NCBI GenBank assembly: GCA_965285935.1 | Contig: OZ260662.1 | Span: forward strand, 50,406,001-50,470,000 | Length of the DNA: 64,000 nucleotides | Direction: 5' to 3' | Source of the DNA: Ophelia neglecta | Taxonomy: Eukaryota | Shown: positions 5,050 through 43,700 of the stretch, one piece after another | How positions within the stretch are numbered: position 1 is the first letter of the stretch | Layout of the letters: each line of letters starts with the position of its first letter | Translations under genes and position numbers: made by a program | The notes under the pieces: model-generated | The model's database searches: none | What the model was told of the DNA's origin: nothing | Seen by the model: only the letters and a program-made list of their open reading frames with translations

Positions 5050-8000
5050 TTAGCTGTGAAAATATTCCTTCTCGAGTTCGTCGTTTCTTTTATCCGCTAA
5101 ACTATTAAAATATGAACAGATTTAATTAATATATTTTTGTTTTTTAGCCGCTGAAACTTCAGGTAACAGGTATAAGTTAAGAGCAAGCAAACTAATGGAA
5201 TTTTTTCCTATAATATACATCCACTTACATTACTAATCCGAAAATAACAAAGGAAATTAGGGATATAGCGTCGACCGAAATCCAGAAGGCAAGGAATTGA
5301 TTAGGAGTCTGAAAAGTAGATAATATGTTAAGCTCACAAATGTGTCCGCTAGTGCACAATCAGATGAAATTGTCTAATGAAGTCTATTTTGGCAAAAAAA
5401 AAAACGTTACGACTCGTGATAAGTGTGAAGCTTCTGAAGGAAATGAAATTATTATCAATTTCAATTCGTTTTAGGTTAAAAATTATAGGAATTAGTCGTA
5501 GGCAAGGACATTCAGGAGTAACCTTGAATGTGTCTATACTCACCTTGCGCCACACTGGCTGCTGCAGGTCACCTAGTTCTAGAGTGTCTGTGGTAACAGA
5601 ACTGACTCCCATACACCAATTGAGTGAAAACAGCCACTTTGTGTTAACTCCAAACATATTTACTCGAATATTCCTATCTTCGTAACTTCTGCAATGTGCA
5701 AGAATAATGGACTTTATCAAAATATTTCGACGGTATTTCTCTAGGACAGAAAATGTTTCTTACAATTGGCCCTCTATAATATTTGCTTGTCGCTTTATTG
5801 GCACAAGAGGCGGGAGTAGCATTATCAAAATAATGAATTATCGGTTTTGGGATATAACATTTTGTCATTCACACGAAGTAGAAGGTGAACCAAAGTAATA
5901 TCACCCGATTTGTATCGGGAATAGGCCTTTAGCATTATTAATATATCATATTTTTTTATGATTATGTGTAAGTAACTAGTTAAGAAATATATTGGGACAA
6001 GGGTGTTTTTCAGTGGCAATTTAACTTGCTTGGGAGCTAGAGGAGCAGTGAGGTATATTGTGTTACATAACCAGTATAAATATTAAAATGGTTTAAGGTC
6101 CTGGCTTAAGGGCGACTTTTATTTCATTTTTATACAAACTCAGTGGTCTCAAGTCACATTTAGTTTGGCCCTGATTCAAAAATCCACAAAAAAATAATAA
6201 GCTAGTAAGATAAGGCCTGCCCAGACCGGATCAATTTATAGGCATAGTCTATTACATTATTAATGTTTATATATAAATATTTCACGCGTCAGTGTCATAT
6301 TTTGTCCCAGGCCTGGCGCAGCGTGTGCGATCTTCCTATATAGTTGTAAAATGCGTGACCAGTTTAACCAAATCTGACATATCCATTTCCAAATTTTCGG
6401 CCATTATGGGTGTATTTGGTTATATGTATAGTGGATTCGGTATCGAGCATCTTTCTAACTGTTACTTCCAAATGTGCGAGTGATATCTTACCTTACTTGA
6501 CTAGCTGTCAATTCCGCATATCTTACATTTATGTGAGAGATGCCCCTTTTTTGAAGAATCTCCGGATCTTCGGGTGACATCCATACCTGAGTAAACACAT
6601 CTGCTTGGCTAACATTGTCATCTTCTGTCTGCCACCACACCTGAGCGATACGTTATTAGGATCAATGATTTTACATGGTACCATTAAAGATAACAAAATA
6701 CACAAGAACCTTTTTATCTAAGGCCAGGCTGTAAGAGTGAAAAGCTAAACATAAAGATGAGGCTCTTCGTGAACACCTGAAATGTCATACCCATATTTGC
6801 CCCACAACCTTATAACATTGGAATTGGTAAAAAGGATTGTCTTCAACCTTATTGTAAATGCGTGTTATTGCTACATCGACAATAACGGCCCAAAAATTCG
6901 CATAAATTTGGCCCCACCCAAAACAATCAGCAGGGTATTTTAGTACACTTACTTTTTTAGGAGGAAAGCCACTGTCGAGAATTGTCCTTATTATAATATC
7001 TCGCCATACGTTGTTTTGCGACAATGGATGTGTTTCCTCTGTGCAGGTGAATCTGACGTCAAATAGTACATTCTTGTTCTGGCTTTTAGCTATATCTAAA
7101 TATGACACCAGTGGAAGTATCTTCTGTGATCGGATTGTGACCTTCTCTTCATCGCTCAAATCTTTGACAGTTCCAAATGGATCACTCTGTTTAGAATCAA
7201 AATATGTTGCAGATGTCATGAGAACACTGTAGAGTTTAGAAATCAAAAGAGACACATATGCTGCCTTTTTTCGAGATATTAAATGCAGGATATTAAAGAT
7301 ATTATATCAAGAGATTAAATGCGGTTTTTTGTCGGTGGGTGTGGGGGGGGGACGACCGATTTTGTGCTGCGGGGGGGGGGGGGGGGAGTACAAACGTATT
7401 GAGCTATGTCATTGGGGCCAGGACCGGGTATATGTGCGTCTGCCAGGAGCTGGGATTTATTTATTCATTTAAAGTCTTTACTCTGAGATATCCTGTCAGC
7501 GCTGCAGTGCGGCCCAACATTACATACAATAAATTCGTAACAAGACGTTTATCATAAGGAGCAAATCAATAATAGTTAACTGAAAAACATAACAATAAAA
7601 ATTAATATTGGGATGTCGACAATCAGATAGTAAATAAAAGCTGACTCTGTGGTTTATAAGCAGAGCTCGAAATATTGGGCTTGTATTAAGTTTTGTTTTT
7701 TTGTATAACTAATGGTTCCTATATGCGTGTTATGAAGTAACTGACAGCCCCTATTAACTCCACTTCCTCCCCCATTTTGGAGGAAAAATTGATGTGTGAA
7801 TTTGGTGTACCATGGCAGAGTCTGAAACATTGCTCTGTAGGTGAGATATCATTTTGTTTTGTCCTGGGGGGGGGGGGGGGGGGGAGTTCATGGGGATTGT
7901 CGGGGAGAGTGAGGGTCACCTACAAAATAAGTCGGGGTGAGGGGGGGGGGGGCGAAAAAATGTAATGTCTTCCCGGAGGGTGGAGACCGATCCATAATTA

Positions 8001-14229: not shown

Positions 14230-17200
14230 TTAGCTGTGAAAATATTTCTTCTCGATTTCGTCGTTTCTTTTATCCGCTAAGCTGTGAAAATAAGATGAGA
14301 TTTAATTAATAGTTTGTTGTTTTTCGCTGCGGCAACTTCGAGTAAGAGCAAAAAAAGATTATTTTTTTCTATAATATATATCCACTTACATTATCAAACC
14401 GAAAATACCAAACGATATAATGGATAATATGTCGACCGAAATCCAGAAGGCGAGAAACTGACCAGGGGTCTAAATAAAATGCGTTAGATCAAAACCATGT
14501 GAACCAAAAAAATATGTCTGGGAGTGTACAATGTGATGAAAATATCTAATGCAGTCTATTCTAGCGAAATAAAAATACGAAGTGTGTTTGTGAATATTTC
14601 AAAAGAAAAAAAAAGAAATTTTTATCGGATATATGTACTTAAAATTTGAAAAATGTATGCTTAAGTGGTAAACAAGGTCATTTAGAAGTAACTTTCATGT
14701 CTCTATACTAACCATGCGCCACACTGGTTTCTGTAGGTCGCCTAGTTCTAGAGTGTCGGTCGCTATGATACTGACCCCCATACACCAGTGGAGTGAATAC
14801 AGCCACTCCGTATTAACTGTAAACACGGTTACTCGGATATTCCTATCTTCGTAATTTCTGCAATGTGCAAAGAAAAATTGAATTTGTCAAAATGTCAAAT
14901 ATGCGACTTCAGAAAAGATATCGTTGCCTTCAAATTAGCCCTTTATAATATTGACTTGTCGCATTTATTGGCAAACAAGGAGCTGGAAATGGTTCTTAAA
15001 AATTAAACGGTAGTGCGATAAAATGGAAGATGAATGCAAAATTTGATATCACTTGTATCGGGGATGAGTTTTTCAAAATTAATAATATATTTATAGACTA
15101 ATCAAATAGTTATGTGACTGGAGGTACTTTTTGGTCCGGTATTTTGTTTGCAATGTCGGTCCCATTTATTTACATAATTATGTGTTTTATACGACCTTTT
15201 CAACTATTTGTATCCACTGTTTGTAATATCTATAATATTTTAGTTGTTAGCGGTAATCCTCATGAGCCTACAATGTTGCAGAGTGTTACATAGTGTTCCA
15301 ATAAGGTTTTATTAGATGTTAAAGTACTGGTATCAGTGTATTTCATTTGTAGTTCGATCACTGTAANNNNNNNNNNNNNNNNNNNNNNNNNNNNNNNNNN
15401 NNNNNNNNNNNNNNNNNNNNNNNNNNNNNNNNNNNNNNNNNNNNNNNNNNNNNNNNNNNNNNNNNNNNNNNNNNNNNNNNNNNNNNNNNNNNNNNNGCTG
15501 GCGCAGTGTGTGCGATAGTCCCATTTTTAGTTGCCAATGTATAATGCATAACAAGTTTAACCCAATTATACGTGCCAATTTTCTGCTTAACTAAAGATGT
15601 ACTATTATTCGTTAACGAGATTGTTTGTCAACTAGGCCTAGGCCTACTTGATGTACGAGTGATATCTTACCTCACTTGATTAGCTGTCAATGTCCCATAT
15701 CTTACACTTATGTGAGAAATGCCCTTTTGCTTGAGAATCTCTGGATCATCGAGTGAACGCCATATCAGAGTGAACCCATTCGCTATGCCTACATCATAGC
15801 TCGACGTCCACATCACCTGAACGATATATCATTATTGTAAATTCCATCATTCGAAAGTTGAAAACTAAAAGATAACAAGTTGAAATGTGGAGATAAATAT
15901 AAATTAATAATTGCCGCATTTTTTTCGTTAATTTAAATTTTATAAAAATAAGGGAAAACGTAAGTAAACAAACAAGGGACAACGTTCGATGGGTTAATTT
16001 TCGATAATCAGGTTCAGTTGATATAAGTGGGCCCCCTTATAGTATGCCTGTTAAGAAAACAATGTGCACGTAAGTGTTTAATATAGGCCCTTATCGGTGG
16101 AAATATTTTTAATGACAAATCTACCACCTAATATCATCAATGTGTTTGATGCTAAGTGTGTGATGCAAAAGTTTTCTTACTTTTACTCCCTTTTAAAAGA
16201 AAACATATTCATAATCAGAAGTTGGCATTCATCTTGACTTAACCACATTTCAAATCGCAAAAGTTTTGTTTAGGCTCTGGGGTACTACCTAGAACATAGA
16301 ACTGTAAAGCCATATCAGAAAGTAGTTAGTGCACCTTTCATACGGATTGGTAGCGTGGAAGGGGGAGGGATGTAGAGGTATTTTCGACCCTTGGCCTCGG
16401 GATCGGCCTGTTGAATTGAACGGGATCTAGGAATGTAAGGCTTAATTTTTCATGACTCGGGATTTTACTTTTTTTCGTGCGCGATTCGGGATCAACGATT
16501 TTCATTTTCTATACATGTCACTTAAAGATGTTCTGATTCATTTCCCGTGACTATGGATTCAATTTTCAATTTATCGGGATTCGAGATATGCCTATCTTAC
16601 CAACTGTGAATTATTTGGTCCCAAACGTCCTCTCTAAACAGGGTTACATTTATTTTTTATTTTTTAGTTTCACATGCACTTTTTCCTCATACGGGCATCC
16701 TCACGTGTTACAGACCTCCCTACCACTATACCACTGCACAAAAAGTGCTATGGAAGATGTTTCCGTTTGGAGAAATGCTCTAGTTAACGAGAATGAGAAC
16801 AAGTTATTTGGCAAGGACTTTTCTTTGAAAAAATTCTTTCTTCAAGATGTTTTTAAATAATCAACAGGGTTCTTGATTCTACCTACTTTTTTAGGAGGAA
16901 GGCCGCTGTCGAGTATTGTCCTTACTATAATATCACGCCATGTATCGTTTTGCGACAAAGGATGTGTTTCCTCTGTGCAAGGGAATTTCAAATCTAGCAT
17001 TATATTCTTGTTCTGCCTCCTAGCAATGTCCAAATATGACGCCAGTGGAAGTATCTTCTGTGACCGGATTAAAGCTTTCTCTTCATCGCTCAAATATTTG
17101 ACAGTTCCATATGGATCACTCTGTTTAGAAATAAAATAGACATTTAATTATTAAATATGCTTAAAGTAATAATAATAAGGTAAAGGAGTTTGAGTTGTAG

Positions 17201-20200
17201 CCGTGTTTTTCAAAGGTTGTGTGTGTGTGGGGGGGGGGGGCATTTATGTTTCTCCGTGTCATTAGGGCCAGGGCCGGGTGTAACTAAAGGCTTAATTCAT
17301 CATTTTAATACTCATAGACCTTGAAAATGAACACCAATGTAAAATCTGAGAACTCGATGATATGCGCACAATATGGTTTCATATAAGTTCCCAATGTACT
17401 TGTAGGCTCTAACTGAAAAACTGATGATTGAAATCATGGTTATTTTCGAGTTGACCTTGAAAAAGTATGTCAAGGTCAAATCAAACGACGCCTTCTGCTT
17501 CACCCATATGGTCCCAATACCTTTTGAAGGCCTCACTGCAGTTCACTTCCGGGCTCGATATATTATGAAAGACAACATATCATTTAAAAAGGTTCACTTC
17601 GAGATAAATCGGCACTGTTCATTGGGCAAATGAATTTTAAATGGTCGCATTTCCGGTCTCTAGGAAGAGTATAATGGGAGTGCCTATGATGGCGACTTTA
17701 TTTCATTCAAACTTTTCGGGTCAACAAGCTTGCCTATTTATCGTGCTTTTTTGCACAAATGCGGTTAATATCATTCTAATTCTGGTTAATATGTGATCAG
17801 AACACGTAGCCAGATGTCTTCACTTGCATAGGCCTCTATATTCGCGCAGTATTCGCATTGCGATATTACGTGATTTGTACAGGTTTTCACCAATTCCCAG
17901 AATCCGGAAACTCCGTGAAAGATTGGCTCTATTTTCCGTGAAGTCCCGTACACGCAAACCATACTTTAATTACTGCAAAACATGAGTGAGACAGGTCATT
18001 TCGTCCCACGGACTTTTCGTTCTCAGTGTCTTTCATCAATTGACCATTCCTGCAATACCATACGCCGCCTGGTGGTGACCGCAGAACTACGGTTTTCGTA
18101 CATCCCGGTCGACCACTTTTCGCGAGCCACTGCGCATCCCACTGCGCACATTATGCAGGTCGCCCAGGGACATGCGAACAGCTGATCAAGAAGGCTTGAC
18201 AGGCTGTCCACAGTTGTTTCACGCGAAGTATTTCGGATCTCCAATCGCGACTCCTCGTTTATTTTTCAATTGTTCTGGGTCTTGAACACAGCCTAGATCG
18301 TTTGTTCACGTTCAATTTGTCAACGATCGTGCAGTTTTCCTTCGAAGGTTTGCCTTCTCTTCGTACAAGGCGCCGCCATCATGCAACCGATGCCGGGTTG
18401 TCACGGGGCCATTTAACCCAAGATATTTGTTCCATCCAAGGATATTTGTCCAAGTGTTTTATCTTCCTGCTATGCGAGAAGCATTCCGCTGCCTCGCAGA
18501 TAAACACCATCGTTCCTTCTTTCGTTTTAAAGCTCAAAATAACGGTTGTACGACGCAGACCTCAGAATGCCATGAAAACGCCATGAAATGTTTATGACAG
18601 CTTGGGTACGCCTACTGGAGTGGTCGACTTTTTTCCCACAATGCATTACGTTATCGTAGTTCTGCGGTTTCCACCAGGCGGCGTATGGTATTGCAGGAAT
18701 GGTCAATTGCCAATTACTGTGATCCCCCATTTTGGACAATAAAAGTTGACAACATTGAGAAGGCTTACACAGATCCACTTCATAGCTCTCCATGTTTTCC
18801 GACATAATTATTAGACAGGCACTATTTTCTTGATTATAATATCAAACTAATTGATCATATATGCGAGCTATAGGTTGCAGGGAACTAAATAAATCTCCTA
18901 TCTCTTACATGTTAAATCGAGGCTTTTCGTCGTCATTTTTCGTATTTTCACAACAATAATCTGCATATAGCGACTAGTTCTGCCTAGAGGCCTATGTATT
19001 AGGGAAAAAATATCAAAAATTCAGCATAGCAAATGTACAAAAAATTTTTGCTAGAGGCTCGAGAAGAAAAAGTGGCCATTTTACTTGTTTTTGTCACATT
19101 TGGCTGCCATACCGCACAAATGAACCCAAAAATATCCACATGGGTCTTTCGGAATCCCACAATTCCAAAACAATACCATCCCCGGTCAAAAATTATTTAC
19201 TCTTCATAAGCATACTATCTAAATTTTACTATTAACACATAAACCAGGCAACCCGGGTATGTTTTCTGCCTTTTTTGGCCAATCACAGGCCAGCTTGGCC
19301 AACTTTATTATTGCCCTGAGAGCTCTGGAACACCTACCAGGGGGCAGCACTGCATGGAAAAACTGCTATTTAGTTCACTGCAACCTATAAGGGGAATTTT
19401 TTTTTCCGGGCTTTCTAAAAAACTGCGTTAAATGGTAGCTAATGATCATTGCAAATCTATTTCCAATGTTTTTTGGGCAAAAAAATGGGTTTTTCTGCCT
19501 CGCCTGGCCATTTGAAAATGACATGTCTACTCGGTATGGGCCCAAATAAACCCCCCTGATGACGCCTCATTCGAAAATGTAAAAATGTTGAATATCTAAC
19601 GTCATTATTATGAACCTAAAGTTGTATGTCCACTTCTCATACACAACTGCTCATGCAAATGGACCCCCTTCCTACCCGATACACGAATATATACATCATG
19701 CTACTGCCATCACGACGGTTGCCATGGAAACCACACTTCAGCCTAGACTGGTTACTGGTTGTTACTTTTGTCATGGGCAGGCGTGAATTAGCCCAGTGAA
19801 TACCCAAATGTATAAGAAAGTAGTCAGAGGTCAAGTTGATATCATCCCTGAATAGTTGCAACAGTCATTGTGCACTAGCTACATAGTTGCCATGGCTACA
19901 AAGGACAGTAACAACCCATAGAGCGGCGTGTTGAATAATAATAAAATGTTCTTACTTGGTGGGCAAGGCTAATTGGCATGCATCTACACCTCCAAACAAA
20001 GTGAATTACCACATACGATTTGCCTCAAATTCGGAGGACAGTTCCTGAAAATATGGCCAGCTCTACCCAACACCACCGACCCCTCACCCCCTCCCCCTTC
20101 CCATCACTGCCGGCCATACTTTTCGCCCCCTATACATCAATTTAGGTGGCCTTTGGCCCTTGTTATCCCCTAGAGTCTTATTATAAGTATACAGAAGCAC

Positions 20201-23200
20201 ATTTTCACCAATAATAACTAAGTAGCAGGGATAAATTACACAAATTTAGGTGAAATTGTCCGATTTTAGCTAATTCTGCCTATAGGTTGCAGGGAACTAA
20301 ATAAATCTCCTATCTCTTACATGTTAAATCGAGGCTTTTCGTCGTCATTTTTCGTATTTTCACAACAATAATCTGCATATAGCGACTAGTTCTGCCTAGA
20401 GGCCTATGTATTAGGGAAAAAATATCAAAAATTCAGCATAGCAAATGTACAAAAATTTTTTGCTAGAGGCTCGAGAAGAAAAAGTGGCCATTTTACTTGT
20501 TTTTGTCACATTTGGCTGCCATACCGCACAAATGAACCCAAAAATATCCACATGGGTCTTTCGGAATCCCACAATTCCAAAACAATACCATCCCCGGTCA
20601 AAAATTATTTACTCTTCATAAGCATACTATCTAAATTTTACTATTAACACATAAACCAGGCAACCCGGGTATGTTTTCTGCCTTTTTTGGCCAATCACAG
20701 GCCAGCTTGGCCAACTTTATTATTGCCCTGAGAGCTCTGGAACACCTACCAGGGGGCAGCACTGCATGGAAAAACTGCTATTTAGTTCACTGCAACCTAT
20801 AAAGTAACTGCAGGACAGCCCCCCTGGCCGCCATTTCTGCAACTACACCAATTGTAGAGAGTTAACCACATGATTCGTACACGGGGGGACAATTTCATGA
20901 ATATATTGAGGGTGGTGATCGACCTAGAAAATAAAGTCATCTTACCCCCTCTATTATATAAGCATAAGTTCTTGAAGAGCCCTTACTTGTAAAAACCAGG
21001 AGCCGGCGTCTAGTTGTTGTAGCTGAGCCATGGTGAACATGCAAGGTTTGAGGTGGGCAACTCTAGGAAACACATCCTCCACGTTAGTCGTCCTGATTAG
21101 AGTATTCTCGTCGTGATGCATAAACGGAATGCCATCAATACTACAGAAAAAAAGTGACAGGTGTGTAGGATTATTTGATATCTCGGCTGTTAAGTCCCCC
21201 AGACACAAAACCAATGGGTAATAACACCCCATGGACGAAATGTACCAATATTTTATGACCAGCGGATGTAATAAACTTAGGATTTCGAGACCGTGTTTCC
21301 AGTTAAACTAGAATTTCTGGACAGACGAATTAAAATATAGTATTTCTAGCCAGGGTAGCTCCCGGGCTCGTGTTATGGTGAGCAAATATAGCTCGGTAGG
21401 ACCTACCGCCCAAGAACTCACTGTTACACCGGCATAAAGCTATGGAGATATGAAGCATTATGAAAGTTTTAATTATGGCATATTGGGGTCATCAACAAAG
21501 GGACGTTTTATTTAATCTCTTGAACCAGGAAGGTTCTCAGTAGACTAAAAGGTTCAAGAGATTAAATAAAACGTCCCTTTGTTGATGAATTCATATCGAA
21601 ACTAGTTGAATGTTTTTCCGTCAATAGAAAGGTACAGTTCAGTATACCTGATAGATACATCGGACTCGAGTGTGATGACTTGAGGATTGGAGGCTGCGTT
21701 CTTGAATGCAATTTCTGTATTCTCCGGGTACATCTGAAGTATATACACACAGATTTTGTTACAAGTAATGTATAATGTAGTTATAAGGCCTACGTATGAA
21801 AAGCATATGAATTTCTTTTAAACATTGTGATCATAATAACAAGTTAAATAGAATATCGGGCCGATTTAAAGCCCCAGCACCGAACGTGAGAAAGAGAGAT
21901 AAATATATGATAAAAAAAATGAATGACTAAAATATGTTATGGTTAAGGAAAAGAGCCCAGGAGTCGGAAACGGACATCTAAACTTTTACAATAGCCGCAT
22001 TTGTGAATGTGAACGCAAAAAAATATATAATATGTAAATATACTCAGAAAACGACGAAACATGGCTGCTGGTCTTACAATAGACTGTATAACTATAACCA
22101 ACAATGTGCTAACGACCTGTCATTAATTTATTGATATAGACAAAATAATAATGGTTGGGTCTACCTCTGAATTACCACCATGTGCAACAAGCTTTGGCCG
22201 AGGGTATAATTTGTCTTCTTGGCCGACACAAGGAGAATGGACGAAAACAGGGAATACATAGACAGCCACCAGCACCAGGGAAAACATCACAAACCAGACG
22301 ACTTTGCAAGCTAAATATGTGTACAGATATAGACAGTATATTCATTGAGTAAAATATATCAAATATTGTCCATAATGTGTAATTATGGCATTAACTAATT
22401 TTATTGAAATGTTATGAGATATTGAAATAGATTGACTCACGTTGGTTTTTAATTTTCGTCCCGAATGATATGACAAACCATCCGACCACAGTCATTAAAG
22501 CTACCAGGGTAGTGTGTAGATATAGAACAGTGAACTGAAATATATAAAAACAAGTTCTACCCGTGCCTAGCTCTCACAACTGTTTTATCATCAGCAATGA
22601 AATACGACAGGATAAGGCTACATATTTTCGAAAGATAAAAACATTTATCAAAATCATAAATTGTATTATGTAAACTAGGGTTTTAAAAGTACAACAATGT
22701 TTCAAAACAAAACAAAAGCGTTATTCACAATGGGTCATAAACCAACAACTTAAGTGTCAAATGGTAGGAAAGGTTTCATGCTAGTAACTATTAGTAAGAT
22801 AATTCTTTCATTCCCATTTTCGATTAAAATCATTAACCTCCGCCCCCCCCCCCCCCACACACACACACACCCAATCCCCCCCTTCCCCCCTCCCCAAAAA
22901 ACCCAATCCCGCCACAAACCAGCCCACCCCATGCAGCTGATGGTAGATGATCGCTGCCTGAATGTTTTAATATTTTATAGATCTAATACCTGAAATGACA
23001 TCAAGACTAGAGGCCATCCTATGTCCCACGCAATCCTTATCAGTGCCGTGAAGATGGCACTCGCCACTAATATTAGCACAAGTAGTATAATATGTACAAC
23101 GCCAAGGGACGGGGGTATATGCAGACCAACATTGCACATATACAAAATCTGCAAACAACATTCAATGAGTAATTTTTTTCTTCAAAAAAGCGGCTTATTT

Positions 23201-25003
23201 AGAAATAATAAATTGAAAAAAAATGATCCTTACTAGTAAAAGTGCGAGATAGAGGCACACCACACATGTCAACGTCACTAGCGCCGTGAAGAAAGGAAAT
23301 GAAAATCCTAAAGACAACCAAATGTACCTACAACAGCCAAATAAACAGTTAGGGAAGCGGGATTTATTTCGGAAAATAAACTTTCTGTGCCATTTACAGT
23401 GAAGCCATCCTTTTTTATTATTGTGCATTAACATACTGCTTTGAGAAAAGTGAACATACAGGGAGCAAATATAATTCAGTTGTGATATAAATATTTATAA
23501 CTTTACATATTTCCCTTACCTGTCTATATCAACCCTGCTGTTTCCACTTATGACCCAGACGTAGAGCCAGAAAGCCATGTACAGAGATGCTGCCGAGAAC
23601 ACTGCGAACCCCACCCCATTCCACTATAAAGGGCATAAAAATACTTTATTTTGGAACCATTATTAGTTTGGTACAATTAAAATGTTTAAGTGAATTAAAA
23701 CCATGCTATCATCCTCGCTCTGCTACCAGTTCTGAACTTTTCAACGTTATTCTAGAAACATTTACCTAACCCTATAAAGGATAAAACCTTATAAGGATGT
23801 ACAAAATACGTTGAAAATTGGAGATTCAAATCATCCAGGGAATGAGCAAATGTAAAAAAGAGATTTTCTACATTTTGAATCTCGATGGACACGTGTTGGG
23901 GGGAGTCTATCGTGACAAGGTGAAAAAGAATGGGAGTCGTTCTTTCTTAGTTCTTGTAATTAATTACCTTGAAAAAATTGTACTTTTTTCTTGACAAGAC
24001 CAATATGAGTTGCGCTATATATATGTGTGTGTGTTATTACAGTTGTATGCGCAATAAGTAACCATATTTGCCTAAAATTGTCGGATCATCGAGTCTCTGT
24101 TTTCGAAACACAAACACACGTTTCCAGCCTTAACCATAACAAACATGTAATGAGTGACTGATTGGGTCGACTGCCTGGGGCGCATCGTACGTCACAGGCC
24201 AAGGCGCCCGCGCCGAATAAGCAACCATGGCCATACCCATTACCCCGCAAAAATTGCAAAAGACAGCACAACATGTATACACATTAATTATTATGCATAA
24301 AATGGCGAGACGGTTCACCGGGTTATACACAATAATTATCATGCATAAAATGGCGAGACGGTTCATTGGGTTAAACAGACTTTTTGCCTTGCATTCCTTC
24401 TAAGCATACTGGATTGCCGAAACGGCTTATGTCCTTTAAATAGTATAGAATATTTAGTGAAACTTGTGTAATGAGGCCACTTAGTGACTTGCCCGAAAGA
24501 GGTCATAAAAGACAAGCTGTCTTTTTACACAAATTGGACAGCCGAAAATTAGTTTTCAAATAGGGGCCTAGGAAACAATTCCGAGACATCAAATACGTGC
24601 TAGCAGTTAATGTTAAACTGAGCTTTGTAACTCGTTATGCGTTATTTTATAACTACAACAAAGTTACTTATTTCATGAATGTGGTGGCAAGGATTAAGTG
24701 ATCACCAAGTGCCTGGTTACAATTATGATAATATGCCTTGACAGATGGGAAAACAACAATACCGATCAACAAGTACACATATCTACACACGTCAAAAGTG
24801 GGGTCAACTTATAAAAGGTATTCCAAATCTCTTCCAAGTAAGGATGACTGGGTATCGGATGATGTGGCGAATACGTGGACTGTGCCTCTGTGCCTAGGAT
24901 TGAATATCACAGAAGTTCAAAATATTTAATTTACCGTTTGCGACGGGGCTTTCCTTCCATTTTCCCAGCGACAGCTCAATAATCCCGATACACAGTTCTT
25001 CAT
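14230..25003 (-). CDS. GDPD4/GDPD5-like six-TM glycerophosphodiester phosphodiesterase, copy B (13 coding exons, about 520 aa)
   Basis: Exons: 25003-24935, 23623-23520, 23327-23234, 23148-22990, 22534-22441, 22310-22165, 21733-21648, 21140-20987, 17120-16887, 15816-15671, 14857-14713, 14469-14390, 14281-14230. Total 1563 nt, open frame, all GT-AG. Starts MKNCVSGLLSCRW, has several hydrophobic helices, then the GDPD domain (AHGG, PENT, LESD, MHHD, LDAGSWF), a TM helix and a short tail. Confidence 0.9.
15367..15496. other. Assembly gap (130 N) in GDPD copy B intron 10
   Basis: Run of N. Confidence 0.99.
18041..18705 (-). mobile_element. Internally deleted TIR transposon carrying a THAP-domain remnant (ISL2EU/PIF-Harbinger-like)
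   Basis: Long TIRs TGACCATTCCTGCAATACCATACGCCGCCTGGTGG...CCGCAGAACTACG, flanked by AT/AT. Minus-strand 18510-18259 reads MVFICEAAECFSHSRK...ISWVKWPRDNPASVA*WRRLVRR...KRSRLCSR, a THAP pattern (C-x4-C, WP, W, LCS) with one stop and truncation before the final His. Confidence 0.8.
18871..19387. mobile_element. 517-bp MITE, copy 1 (GDPD copy B intron 8)
   Basis: 21-bp TIR TAGGTTGCAG(G/T)GAACTAAATA with one mismatch, TA flanks. By eye identical to 20283-20799. Confidence 0.85.
20283..20799. mobile_element. 517-bp MITE, copy 2 (same orientation)
   Basis: Same TIRs, length and TA flanks as 18871-19387. Confidence 0.85.
21489..21588. repeat. Perfect 38-bp inverted repeat with 24-nt spacer (mini-MITE or hairpin)
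   Basis: TCATCAACAAAGGGACGTTTTATTTAATCTCTTGAACC (21489-21526) and its reverse complement (21551-21588). Confidence 0.85.
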
Positions 25004-26949: not shown

Positions 26950-27470
26950 TTTCTCAAACATACAGTTTGACTCTTCTGACCAGTTGGTTATGATAAAGAT
27001 ACGTAGGGTGTCCCTTGTATTACAAGCATGTGTTGATTATTGGCCATTTTGAAGCATCGTCTGTTTGATGAAACTCCAGAGAAGCACGGGCCGCTATCCC
27101 TAGATTTACGGTATATGATACAGGAGTCTAATGTTGTTTCACAACCAGGTACCAGTTTGTGATGATGTAGATAATTTGGGTGTCCCTTGTAATACAAGCG
27201 TTTTTTGAAATAGCGGCAGGGGCCTGATCTGTGTGTTTGAACTGAAGAACAGAAGCACGGCCTTAAACCGGATATTTCCGGTACAATTTGTTTAACATGA
27301 GCCGACGAGGAAAGGATACCACTAATAGTAACCTCCTGTGATCTATTTGAGAGTTATGCTTGGATCCAGTGAAAGTTTGGGCCCTACAAGCCATAGTATT
27401 GTAGTTTGACAAGGATACGTTGGAGATTGACCTTATCAAAGGACATGGAAAAATCGAGAAATATGGAGTC
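26950..27470 (-). mobile_element. Degenerate non-LTR retrotransposon (CR1/L2-group) reverse transcriptase fragment
   Basis: 27470-27291 translates DSIFLDFSMSFDKVNLQRILVKLQYYGL*GPNFHWIQA*LSNRSQEVTISGILSSSAHV, matching the LDFSKAFDKV...KL..YG..G....WI..L..R.Q.V RT segment with two stops. The adjacent part (26950-27260) contains a short internal duplication and is less certain. Confidence 0.8.
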
Positions 27471-29859
27471 ATTTTAGGGGTTTAACTTAACTCAACCAAG
27501 GTAACCGCCAGCAGCTATTGGCCCATGGTATATAGGTATCTATAGGTATTAATGGTCGTTCAATGCGTTCAGTCGACATGTGTTGAACGTAACCAACTAA
27601 AACAGCATATGAAGGAAAGCTACGCCATTTTTGAGCCGGTTATTCTGATAACCATACCACGTCCGGTATAAATTAATGATTGAAAAAACTGGGGGAAGTG
27701 ATGGTGGGGGTTGAAGATATTTGAAGACGAAAAAAGGTAGTCGGCAACATTTGGAGCGGATAACTCTAATGCCCCAAATTCCGAGAAAAACGGTTTGTTT
27801 GGGTCATAGGGAATAAAAAAAAAATTATTTTGTGGCGAAATGCCCCCCCCCCCCAGCCCCTCCACACGTTAACTAATGGCCGTTGCCTCCCTAAGGATGG
27901 CCTTCGTATGACGACTAAGGGTCCCTTCGTGTGTTCGGTCCATGGCGTCTTGGATTGTCATGAACTCCGGTGACCCAGTCAGCAAAAAAGAACCACTAAA
28001 GCGTTGCATGATTAGGAACACCCGAACACTTTTGGTGGCGACCAGCAAGTTCGACCAATGGAACCATGGTCCGACAAGTATAGGCAGCTAGAGATCTTGA
28101 CACAGTTTACATATATAGGCCTATAGGCTGTAGAATATTACCTACAAAGGCGCTTATAAGTGTAGAGAATGTTATCATTGTACAGAATGGCCGAACTTTT
28201 TATTTGTTGAAGAGTATTAAGGATATCTTGTAGTCCATAAAATTATCCAGTACGCCTGAACAGCCCTTATAGAGGGCAGGTAGGGGAGTCCTCGTTCCCA
28301 GTTCCCAGTTTAAAAAATGGGCCAATCCCGAATCAAGAATGTTTATTATTTCATTCCGTTAGGCATGATGTATTTCCCCCTTCTCGATAAATTGAAAAAG
28401 TGATTCCATAGGATCGGGAAATTAAACAGAACGTTCCCGGGTCGCAGTAAATCTCGATTCACGGACAGTTGCCGAATCCCAATTCACAAGAAATTAAACC
28501 TTATATTCCCAGTTCACGAATAATTAAAATAGCCGATTCCGATGGTCGGGAATACCCCCCCCCCCCCCCCTTACAGATTTCAGCATTAACTAAGATATAT
28601 TACTGGTCCGTTATAATCATAAAATATTTGATACAAGCTTTCTAACGTGAATGGCAATAAAATGGTCACGGCCAGTTGATAAGTGAGCAACCATAATGGT
28701 ATAACAACGAACACACTGAAGTCTTGTAGAGAGAATGTGGCTTAACAAAAACAGGCAGCACGCTGTATAGGACAACTACAATCTCCAGTTTAAAAATGGC
28801 CGGCAACGTACTGAAGTGTGCCTCCGTTTCCAACTAACCGTCAGGAGCTCAGGTGCAAAAAGGCAAGATCTCGCGGGTAGCCCAATGATGTCGTGATATT
28901 TGCACGGGTCAATTACGAGGCCGGGCAAGGGGGATCATTAATTATATAGAATAGCGTTTCAGGGGGCCCGTGTAAAAGTTAGATACCATCTTTACACTGC
29001 GAGAATCCCGTCTTTTTCATTTTACATAATCATGCTCTTCCCCTTTTAAATCTTAATTTGCTCTTAGTTTTAATGAGGGTAGAAGTGTGAATAGAATGTA
29101 ACTGGGTGAAGTGAACCCCAATTTCTCACAAATTATCAATATATTCGCATGTATCACATCACTTATACTACTAGATAGTAGTTTATCTAATATATCCAGT
29201 ATTAGACATTGTCTCAGTTAACTTGATCTCCAGATTTTCTAAAAAAAATTGCAATGTTTTGTTCAACAAACTGTGTTAAAAACTCTAGCTTTTCTTCATC
29301 TTAATGGTGAAATGTTTCGAAGGACCATTGCTTTTGGAAGTCCTGCTGAAAATAAACTAGGTACGGACCCTAGACTTTTGCTGGGGGTTATTTTCGCTTC
29401 CGGTTGCCGAATTAAATGGATCTGACCAAAAGTAATGATTATGTACTGTGTAAATGATGATTCGAAGGCAAAGATAAATATCTAGTTGTTTATTTCGTGA
29501 AAACACCCATGTCCGGGAACTGGTAAATAGTTTTATTTGTTTCTCTTAATTAAGTCATTGCGCCAAAACAGTTTATTTTTCAACCGACAAGTTTTTAAAG
29601 ACCGCCTATGACGCGGACCCTCCTGCTACCAGAAATTCCACCGATATTGTCACCGCCCTCCCCATTGGATTTATTAGCTAAACTTTAAATCACCCCACAT
29701 ACTCCTATCTTCGCTTATACTTGTGCAGCCTGCAATAGATAGATTCCATATAGGAGGGGAGGGGGGATTTGACTTCTAGAGATATTAATTCAATTAATTT
29801 CCCATGGTTAATTTTTTGTGTGCGCAAATACATTTTTGAGTGTGTTTAATGGTCGAGCG

Positions 29860-34788: not shown

Positions 34789-37700
34789 ATGGGTAACAGA
34801 TTGTTCAAATCGGTCCGGCGTTCGGATCGCAAAGAACCGATCGTCTACGGGATTCGCTACCTGCAGGAGGGTCAAACCGTGCCCAATAAGTGCAGTAAGC
34901 TTAAAGTCAAGCCAGAGGATGAAAAGAACAGTCAAACTAGCAGCGAAGAAGGCGTGGGATTGTGTATGGGAAACGGAATGCTGGGCCAGCTGACCTCCAC
35001 CAGTCCTCCCACCACCCCTGAGGGAGAGGGGCCCTGGTCCGGCTGGCTCAACCAGGATTACCCCTTCGAAAACATCGTCATGTCCGGTGGAGGCAGCAAG
35101 GGATACGCGTATATAGGTGCTTTGAAGGTAAGTTAGTAATTAGAACAACCAGTTCAAATATGGCTGTTTGGTATTGATGGAAGATTCAACTCGGCGTTTG
35201 GCATGTTGTTATCCCCCGGGTCCCCCACGGTGCCATATAATGCAAGTAGGCTAATGGTTGTGTCTGTTTGTCTGTGGCAAAGTTGGCGAAGCGCATACAT
35301 GTATAGCTGGTAGCTAGCTATACACTGTTGTGTGCATGCTTAACTATATGTTAACATTGAAATAACTTTTTTTTTCTTCTCCTGTCGGCCTACGTAGTTT
35401 ATTATTATCGGAGAGCAACATTACAAAATAATAAACTGGTAGCTTTGACAAAAAAAAAAGACTATGATGAAAAGTACCAAAAGCATGATATATTTAGGAC
35501 AGCCCCACTCAATTGGAAGTAGGCCATATCAAAATCTCCCTGGTAAACCCTGCATTATGTATAGTAATAACAACCCCGTGTCACTGACACCAGGGAGTCC
35601 TGTCATATCAGATGACCACATATTTTGGTGTTCAGCAAATATAGTGCATCAGTGAAAGAATAGTATACATCAATTGTGATATTGTTCTATCAGTAGGTGG
35701 ACTTTCCTAATAGTCTACGACCAAGCGATTCACTGTGTATGTAGCTGGTCTTAGGCGGTGATTCATGATTCAAATTCAGAGCTGGGACAACAAATCGACA
35801 CCATCTGGCCATGCCTACATGAAAACCTAGATATATTTACTGCTGTACACCTCTGTTTTGTATGTTTGTACAGAGCACAGACAGTCATTGCTGGGTTGTG
35901 AGATTAAGATGTTTTTGTCCAGATGACTAATGACATATATTTCCGATTGTCTTTCCTTTCGGAGCTATATTTGACAGATGCCTTGTACACACACACACAA
36001 AACACCTCTTTTACACCCCTCGACCAAAAACGACCGCCTAAGGCACGAAATGAGTCGGGGGTCGTATCAGGACTGGTCAACTCGGTGTCAGTATAATGAG
36101 ACTGGGTGGGGTTCCCTGTCTGGTGTCTACGGCAGGTACTCCAGTCACGCACCACTATAAAGAGGGCATTGGGCCCACTGTCACAAGTAGGAACCGTGGC
36201 ATATGACCATATAAGTGTTAAAAGCCACGTAAAACCCCAAACAACAACAACAACCAAGCAACGACCATTGCCATTGGTCAGACGGCACCGGCCTTCGCTG
36301 AAGAGCAGGCGATTCCACAAATGGCATGTTTGCTCCAGACATCCCCTTGCAGAGATTTTACTGTATATCCTCGAGTGTTCAACCCGGTCTCACACACAAC
36401 AAAAGTTTGTCATTGTGAGCATTTGTCTTTATGAATTAATAAACAACACGTTCGTTATTTACCGAGCCTGCATAATATGTGCATGCCATGTGCGATCTAC
36501 ACCCAGTGTGTTCATTTGTCAAGCATCGCTGTGATTGGTCGTCTTGACTATATATGTGTCAAGGTCGTAGTACGCGTGCGCATATTGTGCCAAGCCATCT
36601 TCGGCCTTCCTCGGCAATCTCCGCTGTCTACCCACAGATTGGTATCCAAAGACGAAAGAGCAGTGACCGCATTGGCGGTGGTGGCGCTGACAGGTCAGAA
36701 TGCAATTATATGCAGTCAACTGTATAACTTCAAAAGGAAATGGTTTAATATCAGCAATTTGTATTAATAGCAGCTCCAATGGGCCATTATAAATTCCGCA
36801 ACTAATGTGCGCATGTCACGTTATTATGATTGCCTTAATATAGATGTCAAGGTAACGTCCCATAGAACCACAGAATCAAATCAATCAATGCCGCAAGATT
36901 CAATACACATTCTGATTGATTGGATTCGTATTCCGCTGTTGTTCACTCATCCCGTATTCAGTACATAATTCATTAAACGATTAAAGAAAGGCAGACGAGC
37001 AGACATCATTCATTGTTTACGGTACGCTGGCGTTGCAGAATGTTTTATCTCGGCTGGAGACACGTAAATTGATGCTTCCGAGTCCATAGTTCAACATATT
37101 CAAGGTACATTTATTTCTTTGTAAATGTTTTCCGTCATATCACCTAACCCAAATGGTAGGCCTATGAATATATCAACCTCTTTTTAAATTGTGCTATTAG
37201 ACAAACGAGTGGGAGGCGGTGAATGACATAAACTTTAAAAGTCAAACCGACGTCTTGATGTCCAATATAAGGCAAGGGCAAAAAGGCAAAACTCAGCTGT
37301 CGAAAAGAAATGCAATTGCATTTTTTTGAGCATAGCGGATCGCGTTACACCTGTATTGGCATAAGGACGTCAGCGACAATAATTGTGTATAGAACTACAT
37401 GTATATAGATCAACACACAATCTATTCAACATTTAACCATCAACTTTTTTAATTTGACAGTGCGTGCACCGGTGAATGTAAGAGTATACACATTATGACT
37501 GCTCACGAATTCTTTTTTTTGGTAGATGAGCTTCTGAGTAAATGAAATATACTTTGGTCATCAGAAGATATAAATTAAAACATTTTTATATGACAAATTG
37601 GATTATGTAATAAGCATGTGCTTTAGACAATGGCATTAATAATATATGACAAATGTTAAGTTTTCTTTAAAGAATTGTGCATAAATATTAAAGTAAGCCT

Positions 37701-40700
37701 ATATGTGTAGCAACGATATATATTTCCTTAGATATACTGTTGAATGAAACTGTTGTAGAAAGACTTCATTATCATTGTATACCACTCAGCCACCTGTCTT
37801 ATTGTGTAATGCACTCCTAGTACAGAATGCGTGAATATAACAATATTTACCTCCTTGATTATTCGATGACACGAGTAATGCATTACATGCAGTAATTTTG
37901 AAGAGTTCTAACATGGATTTTAATCTTTGAATGTATAGGGCCCTGCACGCTATTTTGTCCCCCTGCGGCTAAGGCGCCAAGAGAAAAATAACATATATTT
38001 TTGTTTAGAAATAAGAGCTAAAAAGAAATGAACTGGTCCTTTGTAATGCAAAACGTTTGTGTAGCATCTCACGTATGCCATTTGGACAAAAACAACAGGA
38101 GAAAGATTTCAAAGTATATAGACCAACTGTGTCTGATACATAAGCTGTAGCTCTCGCCATAATTGTTGAATTTAGCCTAAGCTTACATCAGTTTGGCCCA
38201 AATTTAAAACGTGCTACTGAAGCTGCGGCGTGTATGGCGATTTATGATACAAAGGACACCAGAAAAGAAATTAAACCATGCAAAGGGCATTGATTTGTGA
38301 GATTTGAGCACCACGAAGAAACACGATATCTTCTAATATTTAAGAATGTAAGTCATAAAATAAAAAACAAATAAGCAGGCCCAGCCTATATATACCTTTC
38401 ACAAGTTGGGTCTAGAAGCTGACGAGGGGATGCGTGGGTAAGGTGGAATTTCCTACCTGTTACAATATGGACAATAGAGTCTGTCAGGTCCCCATCGCGT
38501 ATACAAGGGCGACAATATGAGTGGGGAGTCTTGATTTATCTTTAGCAACACCTTCATCATGCAATTTCGACGTGAAATTGTAATTTAACTTTTATTTGAC
38601 CAGTTAGAATTAAGAAAACCATTGAGAGGTTTAAGTACAGTGAAATCTGACCATATTCATATATTCAGACCAACTGTCAAATCACACCTCTAATCCGAAG
38701 ACCATACATTACATTTCAAATAAGAAATAACCTGCCTAAACAGATTACCACCATTATCAGGCAGTGTTTTCTAATCCCTCGTGTGTTCTCACACAGGTTC
38801 CACGGTAAATCCAAATGCAGTGAAACCTAAACTGGCCTAAAACAAATTGGGCTTAATGTCAAATAACTAAAATTTATGCCTTATTATTTTAACAGCAAGA
38901 GTTATAGAAATACATCGAGAGCCTATAACTATGTACTCCCGCAAACATTCAGCCCTTAATATCACTATACTCATACAATGTTTATATAGACAATTCACTT
39001 GTTGTTCACCTTGTCTAAGGAAGATTTCTTCTATCAAACCTTCCTTAAGATGTCGTACTTAAAGATCATATATGAAGTTGACACGGTTAAAAACTGGAGA
39101 GAAATAAACTACCTCTTGAACTTAGCAAAAACTGATTACATAGAATCAATCAGATTATCGATATGGACTCTTAAGTTGCAATCAAATTGCTTGCTTTTCT
39201 GACACACCTTAAGTCAATAGCAACAACTTTCGAAGGCGCAGAATGAATTGGAAAAGTGTATGTTACCGAACCAACTCGACCAATTTGGCAGACTACAATG
39301 TATGCTTTGCCAGTTATTTTTTCCTGGTGGCGTGTTACGGTAAACAGTTCTCCGTTGTGGTTCGGTCTAAAGTATATATGAGTAATTGACGATCTTTCGA
39401 GATCTTTCTAACTCAGAGTTCTACGAATTTGGCAGGTAATTCTTGGCACTGTAAACTGAGGCATTTTGGCGAACAGTTAACATTTCTCGAATATCGATCC
39501 AAATATTTGTGCCACATCATGAATGACTAGCAGAGAAAAGTTTTTTTTCGCTGGTTGACATTTTCTCGCTTTGCTGTTTAAAGCGTTCATTATGGTCAGC
39601 TTCCTACAACTTTGAGATTATGAGATAAACAAAAAGCCACGACTTTGATGAAGGTTAGGCCCTACTGCAAGGCGAATTATTGGCACTTAATACATGTGCT
39701 CGTACACTGTCAGCCCGAGGCTAATAAAATGAAGGCAGACCCTTGGATCGAGCGGCGATATGATTATTTCTTACAACGCGAGAGTTATAACGTTAGTTGA
39801 TATGCCTACATGTCAACGTTTTGTTAACTTCATATCATATAAGCTAAACACGGCTCAGTTCTAATCAGGCAAATCGTGCATCTTCGCGTGCATCTAGCGT
39901 TATATCGTGCCATGCTGCGGCCAGCAACCATTGCAACTTTTACCCTTTGTTCTCAGTTCCCCAGCTCGAAACCTGTAGGGTGCAACCGGAAATAAACCCA
40001 GTAATACTTAAAAACCTGATACATCTATCAGAAACAAGAAAACATAAATTTGTAATAGAATAATTCGTATCTCTGTGTTTTGCCTGTGTTCCTTTATCTC
40101 ACAGAGTTTCTTTCTCATTTTTTTCTTGCTCATTTTTACTAATGAGATATTTTTAAAATATCAAATTAAATGTTCCTCTTCTCATAGCATTTAGTTTGCA
40201 AAAGTGCAAAACAACATGCATAGCACCACAAGAAAGATAATTATCAGTAGTACAAATTTGGTTACCCGCTGAAAATCTGGGCTGTGGTACAGAAATTACA
40301 GGGGCCCTCAATAGTGGATGATGGAAGCACAAAGTTGCATTTTAATTTCGCCTCTAGCCTATTTAGCCCTAACGTGGGATCAGGAAAACCAGTCTTAGGA
40401 GTAGGCATAAATACTTGAAAGGGGAGCGTTTCTGATAAAACAACCAAGGAAAGAGGCACTAATAATTATAGTCGTTACCATTAAAAATATGTCCCATGTG
40501 CGTATGTTGATAATATTAATGTCATACGTATGTCTCATACATCAATTTGGAATATGCGTGGTTATTGCCTGAATTCACCACTTACAAAACCTGATATTAC
40601 CTTGTTGAAAGCAAGGGGCCTTTTTGAAAATATACATTTGAATGGGCTCGACAATATATTAATGGCGGTAAATCATTGACAAAGTTGAATTCTTATGTTA

Positions 40701-43700
40701 TATTATGTTATGTTAGTTGCCAAGAACTGAGGGCACATTTGACCTTTCTGCTGAACTTGGTCGAGCTTTAGCCTCGAAGGTTGTCATCGATTGTCTCCTA
40801 CGTGCAGACCAAAGTTCTTTACCATGAAGAGCAGATCCCACGCTGTTGTAGGCCTATTGAATATCAGCTTTTCCATTTTCCTACACGCTGGGTATTGTAA
40901 TTATAGTAATGGTTGTCTTACTAAGTAAGGTTAATGCAACTCGGTTCCGGCCTGTATACTCTTATCAAGTATCAAGTTGATACTTGTTGACTTAGGTCTT
41001 AATAATTAAACCTTGCATGTCTTTTGCATTTCTGTAGGTTTTAATAATACTAATTTAATGTTGATAAGTAAAATGTACACCTAGGCTTATGTTCAGTCAC
41101 GCGCGATTCAGTATGAGAATAATCAGTGTTCACAAAAATAACGTTTACAATAGGGCCTGGCATATAGATTTTGAAATATCGAATTTTGTATTCTAACAAG
41201 AACAATGTAATGCAGCACGTTATATATGTGTGCATGACATGACCCCAGCTTACATACGACACCGATTGCGTGATTATTACTTGACTTCGTACTAAGTTTT
41301 ACCAAATTAAGAAGATTCTGTAACAAAATATGTTTGTTGCCTAACCCAAAGCCTATAATATATACAGAATGTTATGAAGTAACTTCCCACTGAGAATCGA
41401 TTCGTTGTCTTCAATCTAGATCATGCCAAACACCAAGTCATTGTGTGGGAAGTTTAACTGGCTGCCAAAGAGAAAAACAGTCTTGTAACTGAGACATAAA
41501 ATAACCTGTCTAGACAGTCCACCTCCATAATCAGACCAGGCTTTTCCAATCACTTGAGTGGTCTTGATTCACAGATTTCTTAATCGTGCAGTGATATGAA
41601 TAATATAATGCAAGATTTGTTACCTGCCCTCAGCACATAGAGCATGATAGCAGAAAGATTTGGTAGAATGTCCACAATATTAATAAAATAGCCTGCCCAT
41701 TTCAATGAAATTAATAAGCGCGGCAAGCCTCTATTAAGCTTCCAATGTATTTGAACATAGATTATTAAAGTCCCCCCCCCCCCTCACATCCGCCCACACG
41801 TACTTCTGTATCATGCACCAACCACCGCCGTCCCTATACAATATACATGTATGTGAATAGAATAGCAACAATTCGTATTCATAAACATATGCATTTATTA
41901 TTTATTATAACTGAATAACTCATTGTTGCAAGGTGTCATTCAAGGTTAACATAGAATGAGGTGTACTACTACCACGACAAAAACATTCCTATTCTAAATA
42001 TGTACATACCATTTTGGGTTATAATTGGTCTACCTTATCTTGTAAACCTCTATAATTTGTTTTTATGTCCTAAAAGTTTATGTGTAGATTGATACGCATG
42101 GGCTCTCGTGGCTTGGGATGCCCTGCAGGGCAGTTTCCTTTGAATGCGTAGCTTGATTCCAATACTTTCGCGCTCATAAAACACGTCGATTTATAAATGA
42201 TTAATTCACACCCGAGCTCCGTTAAATAAGAACGCTTAAACATGTTGTATTTCACATTAAATATCTCAAATAATAGGCATGGACGTCATATCGATATACA
42301 TGTATGTCATCAATATTGGTGTATTCTAGCCTTTAATATGTCTGTGTGCTCCTGTTAGAATAATCGAATTCGATTGGACCATCAGGGCAGTAATGGATTA
42401 AAACCATATATGTTCGGAATAAAAGTGTATAGGAGCATAGTGATCTAGATGAAATGGACGCGCTGCTTGACAAAAATAGACATGGGTATAAACAGGTCAA
42501 TAGTCTACCGCAGACACACACGAATAATCACGTCTATAGACTTCAATAATAACTAGATTATATTTTACACATTATACGTAAATTTTAATATTTTTAGCAT
42601 GAAAGTTTATACCATGGACTTACTTTTATTTAAACATGTTAATGTAACTGTAAATTGGTCATGCTTAAATGTAAAGCGCTTAGAGCTTTGTATAAGCGCT
42701 GTATAAGTACATGTATAATAATAATAATAATAATAACAGACAGCTATGACTCTACTAGAATCATTATAAAGTATACTTGTGCAAGACTGCTGCAGACAGA
42801 TAGACAAAGACTATACGCAGAAATAAGTCCATATATAGCATCAATGAATATGTAGGCCCACAACATAGATATTGTGTGAGGGATCATGGACAGTAAAGGC
42901 CTCTGCAATGCGGCTAGAGGGATAATTAGTGCACTGAGCCGTAAAAATGCACTGTATTTTTAATTCGATATGGAAGGAACACGAATTATTGGTAAGAACG
43001 AATATGAAATACAATGATTTCAGATGTTTATAAACCTGATCCTACTAGTAAGAAATATTCAGACAAATAATATTTCATAAATCCGTAAAAGTTTACTATT
43101 ACTTTAGGTATTAAATGTTTGAATCTCAGAAACTAACCGTTATAACAACCAGCTGTTATATTTCATCCATGTCATAGTACTTAAATGACATGGGAAGGGA
43201 TCGACCTGCTGCAGGCCACGGTAACGTTACGTCAATCCGGTCTTTTTCATCGTTGTTATGTGTAGTTGCTGATAGAAACGAGTAAATGCCGAAATGTTAT
43301 TAGTTGCATGATTCTGATGAATCCGAAAATTTGAATTATTATGTTTTTTAAAAAATAAATTCAATAATATTTCGATTGAGTGAAACTGAAGTGTTCTGAA
43401 GTGTTGAATGTTAAACATAAGAAATTCATTACCCTGCTTCCATCTCGTCATTTATAGAGGTAGCGTGTTGGTAGATATAGGTCTGGGCAGACGCATATCT
43501 ATCACTCCGATAAATATCTGATATAATAACACCAGGCGATAATGACGCATCATATATACATGTACATGTAGATAGAAAATGAATTCAATGTGAATATCCC
43601 AGTTTTTGCATTATCTATGAATTAAGTTCTTAATGAAATCGTATCAAAAAAATACTTTTACTCTTTTTATCTGCCGTAAGATATATCTATAGGGGATTGT

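Follow-up and report, generated by a model that had tools for sequence, protein, structure and literature searches.

Probable birth-and-death decay in a tandem array of six-transmembrane GDPD genes of Ophelia neglecta

The window analyzed here, a 64,000-nucleotide stretch of Ophelia neglecta DNA (GenBank assembly GCA_965285935.1, contig OZ260662.1, positions 50,406,001 to 50,470,000), carries on its minus strand a tandem array of at least three GDPD paralogs (B, A and C), and possibly more. Two of these genes bear lesions that look complementary: B is full length with glycine in place of the arginine of the H-R-G motif, and A keeps the arginine and lacks exons 1 and 2. The original prediction was that the array might act as a single cassette locus in which a read-through transcript would rebuild a complete enzyme. 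Instead, the array is probably undergoing ordinary birth-and-death decay of fast-evolving GDE2/GDE3/GDE6-type ecto-phosphodiesterase genes, the lesions of A and B being independent and their complementarity a coincidence. According to this explanation, A and B would be an older duplicate pair, with introns about 22% different, in which purifying selection acted on both copies over most of their past and repeated short gene conversions kept exons 3 to 8 alike. A would then have lost exons 1 and 2 by deletion, with a frameshift in its second allele, and would now be decaying or recently dead, though still able to donate sequence by conversion. B would be transcribed as a gene of its own and encode a full-length membrane protein deprived of the phosphate-binding arginine, probably weak or inactive.

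Data and scope

Self-comparison of the window brought out a pair of paralogous minus-strand blocks, and exact exon models were then built for A and B. Read data consisted of DNA contigs of three runs (X1, X2 and X3), found by a search with exons 1-8 of B; all three derive from a single sample, from which the assembly may have been made, and were aligned to positions 5000-13900 of the window, which cover the region of A; the changes cited below are those listed in these alignments. Two sets of homologs were used, one of 154 proteins, mostly representatives of 50% clusters, and one of 190 six-transmembrane proteins out of 333 fetched (450-760 residues, more than 150 bits to B), a redundant set in which GDPD2 of birds and reptiles is abundant. 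An assembly artefact in which two haplotypes were placed as A and B was ruled out, as introns are about 22% different and A shows a second version of its own.

Copy A: deletion and a frameshifted second version

Copy A (10404-5050, minus strand) comprises exons 3-13 only, at 10404-10311, 10223-10065, 9476-9383, 9251-9106, 8565-8480, 8193-8037, 7186-6953, 6640-6492, 5688-5544, 5308-5229 and 5101-5050, all with GT-AG introns, 464 open codons and the phases found in B. It retains H-R-G at 9123-9115, with codon CGT at 9120-9118 (A-H-R-G), and it lacks exons 1 and 2, as the original prediction had it; these exons have been deleted and the upstream region retained. A remnant of exon 1 or 2 was sought in 10405-14229 by tblastn with three N-terminal queries and the best match had an E-value of 0.27, when the same queries recovered exons 1-2 of B and of C across the whole window.

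The deletion junction (10457-10512, minus strand) consists of 56 unalignable bases against 1719 bases in B (25101-23383), the latter corresponding to exon 1, intron 1, exon 2 and most of intron 2. On one side of it, A 10615-10513 matches B 25204-25102, that is, DNA located 100-200 bases upstream of the ATG of B, and on the other side A 10456-10307 matches B 23382-23230, where intron 2 ends and exon 3 lies. The 56 bases have no convincing match to the sequence of B or C (best result reached by 7 of 200 shuffles, in five comparisons). Bin depth of the run contigs is 19-37 over the junction; no listed piece spans it, and each of the three runs has a piece whose start is at 10584. Further upstream, a non-coding block on the minus strand at 11021-11542 (or 11045-11542) matches B at 27470-28004 (or 27489-28004) with a score that none of 50 shuffles reached, and is a candidate promoter or untranslated exon. 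Since matches to B are found on both sides of the junction, A was duplicated together with its upstream region and subsequently lost the 1719 bases; as read from these alignments, A is a once-complete gene and not a 3' cassette.

The first in-frame ATG of A lies in exon 4 at 10214, in a weak context, and an out-of-frame ATG ahead of it, at 10344 (10212-10344, minus strand), opens an overlapping frame of 92 codons. Translation from 10214 thus looks disfavored. The predicted product would have 430 residues and four hydrophobic segments, and not the six-transmembrane layout of five N-terminal segments and one C-terminal segment. A single poly(A)-signal hexamer is found, at 4987.

Moreover, the run contigs contain two versions of A. 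Record 19 of X3 (6164-8045) is identical to A of the window, whereas record 2 of X1 and record 11 of X2 each differ from it by 13 substitutions and 5 gap letters, in overlapping but non-identical sets, and remain at about 99% identity to A over intron sequence. Both of these records, and not record 19 of X3, carry a 4-base insertion accompanied by one substitution in exon 9 (7096-7102, minus strand). With no compensating gap in exon 9, the second version stops at codon 29 of this exon, before the barrel aspartate at codon 43, which is lost. The frameshift is therefore seen in two of the three runs. As X1 and X2 combine these differences in distinct ways and X3 lacks them, they fit heterozygous bubbles that were resolved differently, and the frameshifted version is most likely the other allele of A, the alternative being a near-identical extra copy located elsewhere. 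Altogether 17 listed sites in about 930 bases (1.8%) distinguish the two versions, and a 3-nucleotide difference between A and B at 8176 is absent from the second version. The disabling lesions of A are thus a deleted start exon and, in the second version, a frameshift. The frame over exons 3-13, described as intact, is so in the window and broken in the second version; together with the out-of-frame ATG that precedes the first in-frame one, this frameshift speaks against the proposal that A is a working N-truncated enzyme.

High-copy repeats lie between the end of B and the upstream region of A, at 12425-13900 and about 11530-11830, where contig depth is in the thousands.

Gene conversion centered on exons 3-8

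Divergence between A and B is unevenly distributed along the coding sequence. Synonymous divergence (dS) is 0.11 in exons 3-8 vs. 0.50 in exons 9-13, and four-fold degenerate sites differ at 9 of 111 positions in the former and 18 of 63 in the latter (Fisher p 0.0008). Introns do not follow this partition, their identity being 78.7% in the 5' half and 76.9% in the 3' half (p 0.28). Four-fold sites of the 5' half are accordingly less divergent than their own introns, which differ at 285 of 1338 positions (p 0.0005), and those of the 3' half match theirs (p 0.36). All nine identical runs of at least 30 nucleotides (30-87 bases) lie in the 5' half. Such a patch of silent-site identity above that of flanking introns points to repeated short gene conversion centered on exons 3-8, which probably homogenized these exons.

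This has two consequences. First, conversion of exons 3-8 makes the clean 5' frame of A weak evidence of function. The pairwise ratio of non-synonymous to synonymous divergence (dN/dS) is 0.35 over exons 3-13 and 0.31 in each half; the value of 0.31 shows past constraint on A and B and refers mostly to the time before the deletion. Second, exon 6, which holds the Arg/Gly difference, is the most homogenized exon, with none of its 27 four-fold sites differing; that the difference lies inside it suggests that it is probably recent, and, considering the divergence of about 1.8% between versions of A, it may also segregate. Alternatively, selection could protect a difference inside a converted region, as discussed for opsins (PMC3924837).

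Conversion involving pseudogenes in gene clusters is a process described in the same source (PMC3924837). The major histocompatibility complex and plant resistance-gene clusters that it treats resemble the present array in their tandem paralogs, local homogenization and broken copies as possible donors; unlike these, the array of O. neglecta has its homogenization centered on exons 3-8.

Copy B and the motif arginine

Copy B (25003-14230, minus strand) has 13 exons, all with GT-AG introns, and encodes 520 residues without internal stop. Its exons are located at 25003-24935, 23623-23520, 23327-23234, 23148-22990, 22534-22441, 22310-22165, 21733-21648, 21140-20987, 17120-16887, 15816-15671, 14857-14713, 14469-14390 and 14281-14230, and poly(A)-signal hexamers follow the stop at 14188 and 14116 (14111-14188, minus strand). 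This open model bears out the description of B as full length with H-R-G changed to H-G-G, codon 22179-22177 being GGT (A-H-G-G), and the reported near-identity of exon 6 between the two copies also holds (141 of 146 positions). The residues involved are H217 and G218 (22177-22182, minus strand). The neighboring histidine codon carries a synonymous difference, CAC in A and CAT in B, hence the lesion of B amounts to two adjacent base changes.

Alignment to homologs indicates that B keeps H217, E226, E245, D247, H260, D261, D345 and K347. Both catalytic histidines, the metal ligands E-x-D and the barrel aspartate are thus in place, as they are in A of the window, and the arginine of the active-GDPD motif is absent from B (G218) and present in A. 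The family motif, given as HR..EN..ExD..HD, includes this arginine (PMC4926365), the histidine is reported as required for glycosylphosphatidylinositol (GPI) cleavage (PMC5576486), and, according to a review, R230A abolishes the activity of GDE3 (PMC11314389). Given that GDE3 loses activity upon replacement of the same arginine by alanine, B is plausibly impaired, and we consider it probably weak or dead as an enzyme. To this extent the proposal that B is a pseudoenzyme or a substrate-shifted enzyme stands; against it, loss of the arginine has precedents, H-G-G included.

Indeed, the arginine is not the nearly invariant residue it was taken for. Its column reads R 123, K 6, G 5, Q 2, A 1 and gap 17 in the set of 154 proteins, and R 162, K 12, Q 6, G 6, A 1, H 1, S 1 and Y 1 among the 190 six-transmembrane homologs. 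It is replaced in 28 of the latter, one of them a vertebrate GDPD5 with H-G-G, and 20 of these 28 keep the six other core residues: 12 with K, 5 with Q, 1 with H, 1 with A (Owenia) and 1 with G (Xenopus GDPD5, XP_041438763). The five other glycine cases (P0156, P0157, P0279, P0237 and P0324; gastropods, an echinoid and one more) have lost the first histidine as well, and are likely pseudoenzymes judging from both missing residues. The Xenopus protein (GDPD5 isoform X2, P0123) resembles B in having H-G-G with both histidines, the glutamate and E-x-D kept. It differs in its independent origin within the vertebrate GDPD5 clade and in the lysine that it bears at the position of the barrel aspartate, which B retains.

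Teleost GDPD5 proteins with H-Q-G or H-H-G (P0312, P0314 and P0316-P0320) and the Xenopus protein have Arg, Lys or Ser in the barrel-aspartate column. These arginine-less GDPD5 proteins could perhaps be a compensated or non-catalytic class of GDE2.

Intron 8 of B spans 3866 bases vs. 850 in A. It includes two 523-base copies, 18868-19390 and 20280-20802, which are 99.8% identical and have inverted ends each, probably two insertions of a single young miniature DNA transposon, an assembly duplication being the alternative. A 55-base inverted repeat (96%) around some 670 bases at 18037-18709 is probably another such element. A gap of 130 N at 15367-15496 falls in intron 10; no exon was apparently lost there, as A and B agree across the gap.

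Family placement

Whole-chain homology to family proteins supports the assignment of A and B to the six-transmembrane GDE2/GDE3/GDE6-type GDPD genes, their relatives being GDPD2/GDPD4/GDPD5-type proteins. B shares 36% identity over 506 residues with protein P0126 (BLASTP E 1e-109), which itself matches PF03009 at 59.7 bits, above the cut-off; single exons of B match Pfam GDPD (PF03009) and GDPD_2 (PF13653) below it. A homolog search using exon 9 as query returned no match. Six-transmembrane GDEs (GDE2/GDPD5, GDE3/GDPD2 and GDE6/GDPD4; PF03009) have five N-terminal hydrophobic segments, an extracellular GDPD barrel and one C-terminal transmembrane segment. At a hydropathy threshold of 1.8, five segments were called in B, five in the GDPD2 control P0001 and six in P0126, and the segment that was not called in B, in exon 2, aligns with the first transmembrane segment of P0126. 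Like these enzymes, to which they are 30-36% identical over about 500 residues, A and B have the active-site H, E, E-x-D, H-D and D; unlike them, they lie on a long branch, have a short C-terminal tail and occur as at least three tandem copies, with glycine in B and the N-terminus gone in A.

In a tree built from A, B and a further 48 proteins of 480-700 residues out of the set of 154 (50 rows), A and B group with a Capitella protein and P0126 with a Shimodaira-Hasegawa-like approximate likelihood ratio test (SH-aLRT) value of 96 and a stem length of 1.21; judging from this placement, the array probably belongs to an annelid. Annelid GDPD5-like proteins are among the nearest to A and B by BLAST and tree, and the arginine position already varies in this group: Capitella ELU17435 and Lamellibrachia have H-R-G, Owenia CAH1780730 has H-A-G, and P0126 and P0282 have H-K-G, at 29-36% identity to B. 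A literature search found no paper on annelid or tandem expansion of the GDE/GDPD family, nor on the GDPD5 homeologs of Xenopus laevis.

Weighing the explanations

Several points weigh against decay of A and weakness of B. The window version of A has neither a stop nor a broken splice site in 11 exons. At conserved sites where A and B differ, the consensus is kept 11 times by A and 6 times by B; of 65 strongly conserved sites, 56 are kept in A and 58 in B. In exons 9, 10 and 12 of A, the codon changes listed for the second version comprise six non-synonymous and three synonymous ones (p 0.43 vs. neutral expectation), numbers that fit neutrality and constraint alike, and decay of A may be recent, or the null version a tolerated allele. 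A start in exon 4 would drop two transmembrane segments and leave the side of the barrel unchanged. As for B, all its other catalytic residues are kept and it may not be dead: eight homologs with Q, H, A or G in place of the arginine also keep the six other core residues. Finally, all read data come from one sample, and the tree is the product of a quick search in which A and B sit on a long stem.

Some of these points would fit the reading in which both copies work separately, A as a 430-residue enzyme translated from the ATG of exon 4, with three N-terminal transmembrane segments and an H-R-G barrel, and B as a pseudoenzyme or an enzyme of shifted substrate favored by selection; the frameshift would then be a null allele of A that is tolerated. 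This reading draws on the open frame and splice sites of A, the dN/dS of 0.31, the preservation of topology despite the loss of two segments, the retained upstream block of A, and the recurrence of non-arginine variants with otherwise intact sites, such as H-Q-G in teleost GDPD5, H-A-G in Owenia and H-G-G in Xenopus. It nevertheless seems unlikely, given that a frameshifted A occurs in the same sample, that an upstream out-of-frame ATG overlaps an in-frame ATG of weak context, and that most of the signal in pairwise dN/dS predates the deletion.

We find it slightly less credible still that the glycine codon of B reflects an allele that segregates (an error of the consensus being less likely), so that B would normally be a full-length H-R-G enzyme and only A would be broken. 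The 1.8% difference between versions of A is not far under the 3.4% that separates A and B in exon 6, and the nearby difference between A and B at 8176 already segregates; as to A, this possibility overlaps with birth-and-death decay. However, the two changes are adjacent and lengthen a local repeat, which suggests a single genuine templated event and not a miscall.

The cassette idea, in which transcription from the promoter of B would read through, one of B exons 2 to 5 would be spliced to the next exon of A to rebuild an H-R-G enzyme, and selection would preserve both lesions, appears highly improbable. The two copies do lie on the same strand with identical exon phases, as predicted and as seen in the exon models, but any tandem duplication yields matching phases, which carry no information on a cassette. 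The acceptor of A exon 3 is intact and homogenized exons 3-8 would make hybrids seamless. Read-through chimeras do occur at tandem duplicates, in plants when termination control fails, and are reported in the same source as actively suppressed there (PMC6545605); trace B-A hybrids are thus possible. Nonetheless, splicing of B exon 2 directly onto exon 3 of A would have to pass over 13.1 kb with 11 intact exons and the poly(A) signals of B, when an equally good acceptor lies 192 bases from B exon 2, and a hybrid running through the frameshifted A would be dead. Far from being an upstream unit devoid of 3' exons or termination, B has its own exons 3-13, stop and poly(A) hexamers; the upstream region of A has been retained and C has exons 1-3. 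A selected B-to-A read-through cassette is unsupported rather than refuted.

In cassette loci with variable first exons, such as protocadherin and UGT1A, many 5' exons share one set of 3' exons. The array of O. neglecta resembles them in its tandem units with compatible phases on one strand and departs from them in that 3' exons are not shared, every copy being provided with a complete 3' set and a poly(A) signal. Just as improbable is the stronger form of the idea, one regulated unit in which the promoter of B would drive both an arginine-less decoy (B alone) and a full-length GPI-cleaving enzyme made by read-through, conversion keeping exons 3-8 interchangeable and selection guarding the Arg/Gly difference; if true, two broken paralogs would together form an enzyme/pseudoenzyme switch, controlled by splicing and kept by selection.

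Copy C and neighboring genes

Exons 1-3 of the third paralog, C, lie on the minus strand at 1597-1529, 548-445 and 277-184 and are intact, the remainder being beyond the window. C is more distant, as its exon 3 is identical at 56 of 94 positions to A and to B, vs. 87 of 94 between A and B, and its donor after exon 3 is GC (176-183), where A and B have GT. Upstream of C, at 2001-2760, lies a GC-rich element that is bounded by inverted ends of 39 bases and contains a 33-base tandem repeat.

The plus strand carries a patatin-like phospholipase gene at about 34800-49125, with matches to PF01734 on two exons, below cut-off, and a 9-kb first intron, as well as an INSIG-like gene from 57854 to about 60760 (PF07281, below cut-off), with an intronic short tandem repeat at about 59150-59330.

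Significance

If birth-and-death decay is the correct explanation, the array would be a clear example of duplicate decay combined with exon-centered conversion in an unannotated invertebrate GDE cluster, and would otherwise have little significance. Beyond this locus, the arginine needed by GDE3 has been replaced in several lineages, with H-Q-G in teleosts, H-G-G in Xenopus, H-A-G in Owenia and several cases of H-K-G, and the rest of the active site has been kept in these arginine-less lineages, which raises the question of non-catalytic or altered six-transmembrane GDEs.

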